The position numbers and the translations under genes are program-made. DNA of 44,605 nt, taken from the sequence record MK759854. One strand, 5' to 3'. This DNA comes from Shigella phage DS8. Below the pieces are notes generated by a model. It did not search any database and was not told the origin of the DNA. It worked only from the letters and a program-made list of their open reading frames with translations. This document shows, one piece after another, positions 35,700 to 44,605 of this stretch. The stretch's first letter is position 1. Every line of letters starts with the position of its first letter.

Positions 35700-35920
35700 T
35701 TCTCTCTCCACTTAATCATCTCGCGTCGCGGCATAGTGACGCGGTTGTATTCATCAACATTAAAATTGGCCCGAATCAAATCGTACATGTCATTTTTAGG
35801 CATATCAGCCAGCGCCACATAGCAACGGGCAAAGTAGCGAACATCACGGAGTGTCAGCGGCTGCCGCTTCTCCACAATGCTGGTGATAATGTCCATCGGC
35901 TCGCGTCGTGGTCTTGGCAT
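35696..35920 (-). CDS. hypothetical protein
   Basis: 74-aa ORF with AAGGAG RBS 8 nt upstream; first gene of the leftward operon. Confidence 0.45.
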   Translation of the reverse strand: MPRPRREPMDIITSIVEKRQPLTLRDVRYFARCYVALADMPKNDMYDLIRANFNVDEYNRVTMPRREMIKWREK

Positions 35921-35946
35921 ATTTACTACTCCTTTTCGAAATTTAT

Positions 35947-36000
35947 TATTGACGAATCTACGTCACTTAGTCAATACTGTTGGTGTAGAATGATTCTACC
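35947..36000. promoter_or_regulatory. divergent control region: TTGACGAATCTACGTCAC and palindrome GTAGAA-TGA-TTCTAC
   Basis: Motif copies read directly; sits between the leftward (35920) and rightward (36024) operons. Confidence 0.4.
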
Positions 36001-36023
36001 ACAACGGAAAAGGTGATGTGGAA

Positions 36024-36221
36024 ATGCGATACAAAGAAATAGCAGCGAGATATCAGAAAGAAGTTCGCGAGGTTATGGAAATCCTTAACGTTCGCGAAGA
36101 TACCATTAAGTTTGTGGAAACTGCCATGTGTTCACTGGCGCTTGAGGCGGAGGTTGCAGGCCGTGAAAAGGCTGACGAACTTATATCTGCGGTGGTTTAT
36201 AGTTCAACCAGTAACGGTTGA
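36024..36221 (+). CDS. hypothetical protein
   Basis: ATG 36024 with AAGGTGA RBS. Confidence 0.4.
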   Translation: MRYKEIAARYQKEVREVMEILNVREDTIKFVETAMCSLALEAEVAGREKADELISAVVYSSTSNG

Positions 36222-36472
36222 AGATGAAGGTTATCTGTGCGTTGAGCACGTTGTTATTAAATTCTACGGGAGAAATTATAGATGGCGCATGACGAGTTGT
36301 ACGAAGAATCGTTAATCCAGCGACTGAATGAAGTTGAGCGAACTCGAGAATGGCTGGAGTGCGAATTGCGATAGGTGCGCAACCGTCTGCAACGTAAGCG
36401 CAGTCAACAGAAGGATGTTATCGACTGGTCTGGTGATACGCCTAAATTTAACAACATTGGAGAATGGTTGAA

Positions 36473-36694
36473 ATGAGAAAGTTCAGCACGTTAGTTGACT
36501 TGATTTTCGCTGACATCAGCGAGTCCAACGCCAGAAACAAGAAGTCAAAAAATCAGCGGCAGGATATTACGTTTCGCACACTGCTTAAAAAATCAATGCG
36601 CAGCAAAAAGGAATGGAGATACAGGCGCGACCGAGTGCTGATAAGACTGTGCAAGTTAAACATGAATAAGATACTTAAGGATATGACAAAATGA
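36473..36694 (+). CDS. small basic protein, hypothetical
   Basis: ATG 36473 with GGAG RBS; Lys/Arg-rich. Confidence 0.4.
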   Translation: MRKFSTLVDLIFADISESNARNKKSKNQRQDITFRTLLKKSMRSKKEWRYRRDRVLIRLCKLNMNKILKDMTK

Positions 36695-36936
36695 GCGCAC
36701 CACATATGCCGATGATGAATGACGATGGGTTGCTGGAGTGTGATAATTGCGGCAGCCACGAAGTTAAATTATATAACGATGATGGTATGTATTTCGCCAT
36801 GTGTGAGTGCGGATGCTCAAGTGATGTCCACGTAACGAAGTTGGCTGCGGCCACCCAATGGAACACAAGAGGTGGACACCTCTACGCCGCTGATGACTTC
36901 AATCAGGCGGCAGAGGAGCGTGATTATGGACTATAA
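36691..36936 (+). CDS. zinc-ribbon protein resembling Lar-family restriction alleviation proteins
   Basis: 81 aa; CDNCG ... CECGC cysteine pairs followed by AAATQWNTRG, reminiscent of the Lar-family C-terminal A..WN.R signature (from memory). Confidence 0.4.
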   Translation: MSAPHMPMMNDDGLLECDNCGSHEVKLYNDDGMYFAMCECGCSSDVHVTKLAAATQWNTRGGHLYAADDFNQAAEERDYGL

Positions 36937-37414: not shown

Positions 37415-37556
37415 GCCGCTGCCGCCATGCGAAATGTCAGGAATGCCGCAGCATGAGGATGTAATCCTCACCGAGGCGGAGTGGCGAAAAGTGGCAAGGG
37501 TGCAAATCATGTTCCGCAAACTTGCTGAGGATGTACTAAATGAGATGGGCTATTAA
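37380..37556 (+). CDS. hypothetical protein
   Basis: ATG 37380 with AAGGGG RBS. Confidence 0.35.
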   Translation: MGKAKRKKQEYEPLPPCEMSGMPQHEDVILTEAEWRKVARVQIMFRKLAEDVLNEMGY

Positions 37557-37773
37557 GCATAAATCAGGAAGAACTCTGTTTGTGACATCAGATGAGTTTA
37601 TTGCCAATAACCGTAAAAAGATGGGGTGGACAGTGGAGGAAATTGAATGTGACCACGAGTGGGTTAGTAGCGGTGGATGGCCTTACATTCATTATACTTG
37701 CATGTGGTGTGACGAGTATGGATGGTCTGTAAATCTAGAAGGCGATGATGAGGACTTAGAGAATGACGAGTAG
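37540..37773 (+). CDS. hypothetical protein (Cys/His-containing, acidic C-terminus)
   Basis: 77-aa ORF. Confidence 0.4.
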   Translation: MRWAIKHKSGRTLFVTSDEFIANNRKKMGWTVEEIECDHEWVSSGGWPYIHYTCMWCDEYGWSVNLEGDDEDLENDE

Positions 37774-38035
37774 AGAGAAGTTTGAAGAATGGGTTAAGGA
37801 AGAAACAGGATTTGATTTGTGGCGCACGGAATATCCAATGACTGAATGGGATAACCAGCAGTACAAATGTCATCAAACAAACCTTGCATGGATGGCATGG
37901 CAGGCATCGCGCGCAGCAATTGAGATTGAATTGCCAGGTTCATTCCGTGAGTCTTATCTAAGTTCAAATATGGTCACTGATGAGCAGGAAACAATTGAAC
38001 TCATCGAATCGCAAGGCTTAAAGGTGAAAAAATGA
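37763..38035 (+). CDS. hypothetical protein
   Basis: 90-aa ORF. Confidence 0.4.
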   Translation: MTSREKFEEWVKEETGFDLWRTEYPMTEWDNQQYKCHQTNLAWMAWQASRAAIEIELPGSFRESYLSSNMVTDEQETIELIESQGLKVKK

Positions 38036-41917: not shown

Positions 41918-42454
41918 CTACAGACGCATCGGCATAACAACAATCTTCGCAGTCTCGCCAGATGGCGCATTAAGGCAGCAAACGGCGGCATTTGTATTCC
42001 CATTCAATTCAAACTTAACGCCACAGAATTTAGGATTAAACAGCTTCGACACTTTCTCGATATCCACGAGATAACCAGCATTGAAGCCAATTTCCTCTGC
42101 TGCTTTAGTTTCCTTTGGTATCGCGCGGTCAATATCAGGGAATATACCATCAATCTCTTCGCAGATACCAGAACCAACCATCGCGCCAGTTTCATCATGA
42201 TACGTTGCAATTTTCGACTTTGTATCAATGATGGCGTACTCATAACGTTTTGTTGGAGATTTACCAATCTTGATAATCACATTTTCTGTCAGCTTATTGT
42301 CATGACTGCAGCCAATGAATGCGCGATGACCATCAGTTGAGGCAATGCGACCATCAGGCATGAAGCAGATGCCGTTCAGGTAGTAGCGCACATCATTACG
42401 CGCCTTAAATATTAATGCCGACTCAAGTAATAATTTGCTGATTTTTAGTTTCAT
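41918..42454 (-). CDS. truncated beta sliding clamp (DnaN) homolog: domain II plus C-terminal part of domain III
   Basis: 178 aa; colinear with E. coli DnaN from about residue 140 as I recall it: DVRYYLNG, TDGHRA, DG.FPD, EIGFN..Y.LD and the exact C-terminus VVMPMRL; no domain I. Confidence 0.6.
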   Translation of the reverse strand: MKLKISKLLLESALIFKARNDVRYYLNGICFMPDGRIASTDGHRAFIGCSHDNKLTENVIIKIGKSPTKRYEYAIIDTKSKIATYHDETGAMVGSGICEEIDGIFPDIDRAIPKETKAAEEIGFNAGYLVDIEKVSKLFNPKFCGVKFELNGNTNAAVCCLNAPSGETAKIVVMPMRL

Positions 42455-42624
42455 CACTTCACCTTAATCATGTGTTGTTTTGCAACCTTCAGGCATTCTT
42501 CAAAAATGCCACCCTTCTTTGCGCTCTGATTGCGCTTGTAATACTGGATTGCCACATCAATTGCCATCTGGTCGATATCTGGCAGCTTAGCGCGCAGTTG
42601 CTTGACGAGAAAATCATAAACGTT
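42454..42624 (-). CDS. small protein (56 aa), hypothetical
   Basis: Hand-found ORF, GTG start with GGAG RBS 6 nt upstream; TGATG-coupled to the DnaN-like gene. Confidence 0.3.
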   Translation of the reverse strand, partial: NVYDFLVKQLRAKLPDIDQMAIDVAIQYYKRNQSAKKGGIFEECLKVAKQHMIKVK

Positions 42625-43105
42625 CACTTTTTACTCCGTGATTCTCGTGATATCCAGTTGAAGTTTCAGCTTTTTCTCTGGCTGATATTGCATCTTCTTT
42701 ATTGGCAAAAAAACCAATATGCATCTTTGATACATAAGCCCTCCATAACCCACTCTTCCTGTCAAAGCTAACGCCAGTTCTTCCTGATTTGTTATTTTTC
42801 TGCCTGCTGAGATTTCTGTGGTTCTCTATATGGCTCACCAGCCTTAAGTTTTCAATGCGGTTATCATCACGAATATGGTTAATGTGATCAATTTGCATCC
42901 CGTCAGGGATTGGTCCATTAAACATCTCCCATATAATTCTGTGAGCCAAGAACTTTTTGTAATCAACGCATATGATTACATATCCTGTATTTGCAATTGT
43001 CCCAGCTAAAGAGCCACTTAGCATTTTTCTTTTTTGGTGCTTCCACCTAAGCGCCCCATTATCATAATGAAAAATATCACCCCAATTTATTTTAGTTGTG
43101 TTCAT
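42614..43105 (-). CDS. HNH homing endonuclease with AP2 DNA-binding domain
   Basis: IDHINHIRDDNRIENLRLVSHIENHRN (HNH) followed by GVSFDRKSGLWRAYVSKMHIGFFANKEDAISAREKA (AP2-like); ATG 43105 with GGAG RBS. Confidence 0.7.
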   Translation of the reverse strand: MNTTKINWGDIFHYDNGALRWKHQKRKMLSGSLAGTIANTGYVIICVDYKKFLAHRIIWEMFNGPIPDGMQIDHINHIRDDNRIENLRLVSHIENHRNLSRQKNNKSGRTGVSFDRKSGLWRAYVSKMHIGFFANKEDAISAREKAETSTGYHENHGVKSERL

Positions 43106-43914
43106 CACATCTTCTCCAGAATTGCCATAACCTCGTGAATATCAGCAACAGGAATCTGGATAAATTCCTCATCCTCAGCCACCACATGGCCAGCAGGTAG
43201 AATCACGTGGTCTGCTGGCTTCAGTAACTCAATCAGGCGGTCCACTGGCTTAATCTTTTTCGACTTCAGCACCTTTGCTGTGACCTTTTCTTTGCCTTGC
43301 GCCTTCGCTTCTTCTACTGCCTCGTCGATAACTTTAACCGCATCATCGCCATGCTCACGCGTTACCGCTACGGCATTTGCATAGCTGATTTGCCCTGCAC
43401 TGATGCGCGCTTTTACTTCTGCTGGCACATCACCAAGCGACAGATGCATTTGCACGTCAGATACTGAACGACCTACCTTTTTGGCGATTTCTTCATTCGT
43501 CCAGCCAAAGCCTTTCAGTCTCGTGTAAGCCTTTGCACGCTCAAACGGGTCGAGCTGCTTACCCTGGCTGGATGACACCATGAAGGCGATTTTGTCTGCT
43601 TCGTCTCCAGTGAAGTCCTTACACTCAATGCGAACGATTGGTGCGCCGCGCTCAATGGCACGCAGTGCACCGAGATAGCGATGCTGACCATCAAGAATGC
43701 GGATTCCCTTCTCGTCTGGAATAACTGTTAATGCTGGCAATGGCTGACCTGATTCCCAGCACTGCGCGAAATATTCAACGTGCTGCTCGTCTGCTTCGCG
43801 GATGTTGTATCCCGGCTCCAGATAGATTTGCTCAACTGGCACTAGATAGGTTTTGTTAACAGCGATACCGTTGCGCGTTTCTTTGTCTGAATAGATTTTG
43901 CTGAGTGTTTTCAT
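43105..43914 (-). CDS. ParB-like nuclease-domain (ParB/Srx fold) protein
   Basis: IRILDGQHRYLGALRAI matches the ParB N-terminal domain core; ATG 43914 (alternative GTG 43926). Confidence 0.6.
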   Translation of the reverse strand: MKTLSKIYSDKETRNGIAVNKTYLVPVEQIYLEPGYNIREADEQHVEYFAQCWESGQPLPALTVIPDEKGIRILDGQHRYLGALRAIERGAPIVRIECKDFTGDEADKIAFMVSSSQGKQLDPFERAKAYTRLKGFGWTNEEIAKKVGRSVSDVQMHLSLGDVPAEVKARISAGQISYANAVAVTREHGDDAVKVIDEAVEEAKAQGKEKVTAKVLKSKKIKPVDRLIELLKPADHVILPAGHVVAEDEEFIQIPVADIHEVMAILEKM

Positions 43915-44477: not shown

Positions 44478-44605
44478 ATTTAAACATGGGTTCAACCAAT
44501 TCGCCGTCTCGTTCACGCGCAACTGGCAACACTAAAACTGGCGGCAAAACTGGCGCAGTGAAGCCAAACGGCTCTACCCGCTCACCATCGCGCGGTAAGA
44601 AATAA
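44478..44605. repeat. second copy of the 128-bp terminal duplication (identical to 1-128)
   Basis: Exact identity with window start; contains the small ORF 44486-44605. Confidence 0.9.

Follow-up and report, generated by a model that had tools for sequence, protein, structure and literature searches.

A probable recent amber mutation in a conserved small gene of the early operon of Shigella phage DS8

PHROG 15697 is a family of small phage proteins for which no function is annotated, and whose members include Bas80_0026 (XPK40549.1), SeSz-2 gp48 (YP_010053652.1) and phage C1 gp37 (YP_010054312.1). A gene of Shigella phage DS8 (sequence record MK759854) shares the operon position, ribosome-binding site, length and ATGA overlap of these members, and its protein is 92-98% identical to theirs once codon 31 is taken as Glu. 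Unlike them, the DS8 allele has TAG in place of GAG or GAA at codon 31, so only the first 30 residues are encoded.

The whole stretch of DNA analysed here, 44,605 nt in length and called the window below, is a complete small siphovirus genome of the Skatevirus/Deseoctovirus cluster, to which Salmonella phage SeSz-2 (Skatevirus), Escherichia phage C1 (Deseoctovirus), Vi II-E1 and the BASEL phages Bas77-81 also belong; the BASEL paper assigns the whole cluster to Skatevirus (PMC11990801). Bases 1-128 of the window are an exact repeat of bases 44478-44605. This end repeat is an assembler circularisation overlap, the genome being complete and circular or permuted, with ~44,477 unique bases. The nearest relatives are ~90% identical genome-wide and the best phage record is ~92% identical locally, while the contigs coding for the most similar proteins reach a DNA identity of only 87-91%. 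No relative more than 92% identical was present in any collection searched, and the immediate ancestor is not among the sampled genomes. E. coli chromosomes searched with the window gave no match.

The interrupted gene, its family and its operon

As read from the sequence and the ORF list, an ATG at 36282, located 9 nt after a GGGAG Shine-Dalgarno sequence that is identical throughout a 5-genome alignment, opens a run of 30 sense codons, MAHDELYEESLIQRLNEVERTREWLECELR, which ends at the TAG. Past this stop the same frame holds 33 sense codons, VRNRLQRKRSQQKDVIDWSGDTPKFNNIGEWLK, and closes at a TGA (36474-36476) that shares the four letters ATGA with the ATG of the next gene (36473-36475). The first-pass annotation had described a 30-codon ORF preceded by a ribosome-binding site and ending at the TAG, which is borne out by the sequence. 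It had added that the frame stayed open for 34 more codons, possibly as part of an interrupted 65-aa gene: the frame is indeed open as far as the next gene start and the gene is indeed interrupted, but 33 of these codons are sense codons, the 34th being the TGA, and the restored gene encodes 64 aa (Table 1).

Table 1. Features of the operon around the interrupted small gene (positions are those of the window)
Feature	Position	Strand	Basis
65-aa gene (phrog_37091), first of the rightward early operon; control gene	36024..36221	+	ORF list, PHROG match
Shine-Dalgarno GGGAG	36268..36272	+	sequence; invariant in 5-genome alignment
Codons 1-30 of the 64-aa gene (PHROG 15697), N-terminal part of a predicted long alpha-helix	36282..36371	+	ORF list, relatives' CDS, profile, model
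Amber TAG, codon 31, apparently from GAG via G-to-T at 36372	36372..36374	+	GAG/GAA in every relative first examined
Codons 32-64 and TGA, downstream of the amber, intact; basic patch RNRLQRKR, tail DVIDWSGDxPKFNNxGEW	36375..36476	+	same frame; dN/dS 0.045 (codons 32-63), window vs relatives
DUF7301 gene, 73 aa, ATG overlapping the small gene's TGA	36473..36694	+	Pfam PF23975 E = 2.2e-23; phrog_1785
Lar-like restriction alleviation gene	36691..36936	+	phrog_599 E = 2.6e-10; Lar-like annotation in relatives

A frame that stays open past a stop is, taken by itself, commonplace in the window, where stop-to-stop intervals with at least 33 open codons make up 18% of all such intervals. The pattern is meaningful because every relative first examined has a single uninterrupted gene to which both flanks of the TAG align gap-free. 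Each annotated relative inspected has a 195-nt CDS at exactly the same position, which shares the ribosome-binding site and the ATGA overlap; codons 1-30 align one to one with that CDS in phages Bas80, LPST49, SeSz-2, ASO78B and C1, and the 5-genome DNA alignment has no gaps and shows GAG or GAA opposite the window's TAG. The related loci first examined, 40 in number and drawn from GenBank, IMG/VR and Logan, all contain an uninterrupted ORF of 64-65 codons with GAG or GAA at codon 31. When this codon was read as Glu, a protein search recovered 90 clusters, nearly all of 64-65 aa and with E-values down to 1e-34. Glu31 is found in all 90 clusters reaching that position, as an invariant alignment column, and falls within the most conserved motif of the family, REWLEcELREVRNR. 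Read in the same way, the protein matches phrog_15697 over its full length (E = 1.5e-42, residues 1-64 on profile positions 1-64 of 64).

A Pfam search of the small protein returned sub-threshold coiled-coil noise and no Pfam family. An AlphaFold model computed for a 97%-identical relative, with the family alignment as input, shows one long helix of high confidence (residues 2-42) followed by a less confident tail, and a predicted architecture of a single helix plus tail is too simple for a meaningful fold search. The synteny of the window gene is that of the family, after the 65-aa phrog_37091 gene and before the DUF7301 and/or Lar-like genes, with a 4-nt stop/start overlap. What the window copy lacks is the family's uninterrupted ORF of 64-65 codons, owing to the TAG at codon 31, and it would thus be a nonsense allele or pseudogene of PHROG 15697. 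Elsewhere in the family, one member (P0041) has an in-frame 5-aa duplication of REWLE, another (P0077) an in-frame 5-aa deletion near CELRE, and a third (P0006) extends to 71 aa through a stop-loss into the region of the next gene.

The operon is headed by a divergent promoter region (~35920-36020) with divergent sigma-70-like promoters at 35922-35978, and its order is phrog_37091 (65 aa), the 64-aa gene, DUF7301 (73 aa), the Lar-like gene and a MarR/Ren-like gene. The Pfam model Lar_restr_allev scored 28.0 bits on the Lar-like product, just below its cutoff of 28.6 bits. The 4-nt overlap with DUF7301 is annotated likewise in relatives, and such an ATGA arrangement implies that translation of the two genes is probably coupled. 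Other anti-defence-type genes lie nearby in relatives, for example a Tad2-like gene in L037, and the operon region looks accessory, with a host-takeover context. An apparent loss of the DUF7301 gene from L037 was rejected, the gene being intact there and merely uncalled. At L039:344-783 the DUF7301 gene is absent and the stop of the small gene overlaps the Lar-like start (541 vs 538); the stop/start coupling of the small gene is to whatever gene lies after it.

Direction, age and likely effect of the change

Two bases only are private to the window within the gene, a synonymous third-position change at 36341 and the G-to-T change at 36372, and the change is therefore very recent. By the Nei-Gojobori method, both halves of the gene are under purifying selection: dN/dS among relatives was 0.086 (codons 1-30) and 0.045 (codons 32-63), and the comparison of the window with its relatives gave 0.054 and 0.045, respectively. 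No relaxation of constraint was seen in the downstream half of the window gene, which carries no private non-synonymous change. Exact and degenerate patterns across the TAG site retrieved nothing from IMG/VR, JGI metagenomes or GTDB genomes, and TAG at codon 31 was not found by a degenerate pattern search of IMG/VR. The TAG thus appears to be a derived, private and very recent state, or else not to be real.

Among the options left by the first-pass annotation, an amber mutation is supported by the GAG or GAA (Glu) codon in 40/40 related loci first examined and by Glu31 in the 90 clusters. Homologues ending at the same position, which it had named as the sign of a native stop, were not seen, relatives carrying Glu at codon 31; a native short gene was rejected on the same ground, since all relatives first examined continue through this codon with Glu. 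Its remaining suggestion of a coincidental open frame, an arrangement with a chance rate of 18%, was ruled out by homology and by purifying selection on the downstream half, where a dN/dS of 0.045 marks real coding sequence.

Taken together, we consider it probable that the TAG is a recent, lineage-private nonsense mutation, GAG to TAG, that is tolerated in an accessory gene. Translation would end after 30 residues, cutting the helix short, and the truncated product would lack the end of the ELREVRNR core, the basic patch RNRLQRKR and the nearly invariant DVIDWSGDxPKFNNxGEW tail; most likely, the gene is knocked out. Because the natural stop of the small gene overlaps the DUF7301 start within ATGA, termination 99 nt early may in addition lower the coupled translation of the DUF7301 gene. 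This gene has its own GGAG 10 nt upstream, so any polar effect may be partial. As the region looks accessory, a knock-out should be tolerable, and the phage would seem to tolerate this one, in an early operon that also holds the Lar-like and MarR/Ren-like genes; the small gene may then be dispensable. Strong purifying selection across the family argues against this and for a gene that matters in nature, in which case the knock-out should not last, or should be limited to propagation in the laboratory or over a short term.

A tblastn search of the window with all annotated phage C1 proteins revealed no other internal stop in a conserved gene; the sole other alignment with an internal stop was partial (73% identity) and lay at a mosaic boundary (42457-42657), not in the body of a conserved gene. 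At that place, a 57-aa ORF (42454-42627, minus strand) has a stop just upstream of its GTG and matches phage C1 gp24 ('methyltransferase', 112 aa) with 73% identity over the C-terminal two thirds only. Directly upstream of it lies a 164-aa ORF (42614-43108, minus strand) with an HNH-like motif, HINHIRDDNRIENLRLVSHIENH, and the interval 42454-43108 looks like a homing-endonuclease insertion or a mosaic junction through which the neighbouring gene has lost or exchanged its N-terminus. Phage C1 gp33 (134 aa) has a homologue in the window that aligns as two pieces, 37540-37647 (86%) and 37760-38032 (67%), ~110 nt apart, which suggests a mosaic replacement or insertion relative to C1 within this gene (37540-38032).

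A few short family members represent independent point disruptions, with the downstream part intact in each. They comprise TGG to TAG at the invariant W49 (L044:1001-1195), CAA/CAG to TAG at Q37 (L045:707-901, contig coverage 1.48x), a -1 frameshift in an A-run at codons 44-45 present on three contigs, including a 47.5-kb scaffold (L041:1001-1195), and an additional G (+1) at codon 51 in L042:1001-1196 and in an identical stretch of L043, from two sequencing runs. A further short member (L046) has a recombinant or chimeric junction. The disruptions in L041-L045 show that alleles of this kind do occur and can be recovered from genomes that are normal in other respects. The upstream 65-aa control gene has truncated or frameshifted variants in 3-6 of 21 clusters, P0105, P0109 and P0110 being frameshifted or fused and P0106-P0108 N-terminally shortened. 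In public assemblies, these small genes are thus disrupted sporadically as a matter of background, and a raised knock-out rate as a signal of selection was rejected, given the similar variants of the control gene.

Alternative accounts of the stop

The T at 36372 could be a wrong consensus base, a sequencing or assembly error over a true GAG at codon 31; we regard this as unlikely, though still as an account to be taken seriously. The change has the look of an error, being a lone substitution at an invariant residue of a strongly constrained gene with an intact downstream half, and G-to-T is a known class of oxidative-damage artefact. The rest of the genome is free of frameshifts and internal stops in any conserved gene, which speaks for an assembly of good quality, and consensus substitution errors are rare in a complete, presumably well-covered phage genome; on the other hand, the 128-bp terminal overlap of the window is typical of unpolished assembler output. 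The disrupted alleles of relatives bear on both sides of the question: the analogous amber of L045 comes from the 1.48x contig, which makes it probable that some alleles of this kind in public assemblies are errors, whereas real disrupted alleles are found on long contigs and in more than one sample (three contigs for L041, two runs for L042/L043).

The amber could also be real and phenotypically suppressed, a host with a suppressor tRNA, e.g. supE/glnV44 (Gln) or supF, allowing a near-normal 64-aa protein (E31Q or E31Y) to be made and leaving the allele nearly neutral. The supE44 allele is present in many E. coli K-12 laboratory hosts. Isolation of close relatives on E. coli K-12 derivatives (PMC11990801) is consistent with this account, as is the fully intact downstream half, although the latter is expected equally of any very recent mutation. 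The phage itself encodes no suppressor tRNA and E31 is invariant, so even E31Q might not be neutral, and we judge suppression to be improbable.

It is more doubtful still that the small protein is a trigger sensed by host defence, or is costly in some hosts, and that the repeated knock-outs (E31amber, L044, L045, L041 and L042/L043) are escape mutations: no specific support for this was found, and a control gene of similar size is comparably disrupted.

A functional arrangement, either programmed UAG readthrough, with both 30-aa and 64-aa products being made, or termination at UAG and a restart at GUG 36375 that would yield a separate 33-aa C-terminal peptide, is very improbable. The frame is open as far as the next gene, and a GTG, a possible restart codon, directly follows the TAG; yet the stop occurs in 0/40 loci first examined and in 0/90 protein clusters. 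The GTG or GTA at codon 32 of relatives is simply a conserved Val32, and the GGAG nearest to the GTG lies 15 nt upstream, too far for a normal Shine-Dalgarno sequence. For readthrough, which the first-pass annotation had listed as an option, no support was obtained: the stop is not conserved, the minimum free energy of the RNA around and after it (36360-36480, 121 nt) was no better than that of shuffled sequences (z = -0.05), and an Rfam search found no family anywhere in the window, so a recoding RNA element was rejected for want of any match or unusual fold. The only private changes in the gene are the stop itself and one synonymous base, which leaves no room for a readthrough signal to have evolved alongside the stop. 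In E. coli, UAG followed by G is a fairly efficient terminator according to the literature on tetranucleotide stop signals, and the UAG precedes a G here.

That TAG is read as sense throughout the phage hardly deserves credence, since nothing beyond this single in-frame TAG, confined to one conserved gene, speaks for it, relatives are annotated with the standard code 11, and TAG terminates three of 60 homology-anchored genes (TGA 33, TAA 24) at the positions expected from relatives. No tRNA or tmRNA gene was found in the window, and hence no suppressor tRNA gene in the phage. The traits of TAG-reassigned phages, namely many in-frame TAGs, TAG-avoiding termini and a suppressor tRNA, are not those of the window, and both code reassignment and a phage-encoded suppressor were rejected in view of the missing tRNA, the normal TAG terminators and the absence of any other interrupted conserved gene.

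Significance and comparison with known stop-codon systems

With a recent nonsense mutation as the preferred reading, the locus should be labelled in annotation as a disrupted (amber) allele of the PHROG 15697 gene, and neither as a 30-aa gene nor as a recoding event. If reads confirm the mutation, it would be a weak indication, from a natural case, that the phage can propagate without PHROG 15697. The amber, together with the few disrupted alleles in relatives, offers a modest lead for the study of accessory early genes in the Skatevirus cluster. The change itself is a single-base nonsense event of an ordinary kind and matters little.

In programmed readthrough, as for the A1 coat extension of Q-beta, an in-frame stop is likewise followed by an open protein-coding extension. 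There, relatives share the stop, and the principal functional protein is the short product; the stop in the window, by contrast, occurs in a single genome and breaks an invariant motif in mid-helix. The classical amber mutants of lambda and T4 ('am') likewise arise from a one-base change of a sense codon to UAG, with the downstream coding sequence intact, and a host with a suppressor tRNA would restore expression. Those alleles are conditional-lethals in essential genes, selected on suppressor hosts, whereas the one in the window affects a small accessory gene and is spontaneous or an artefact.
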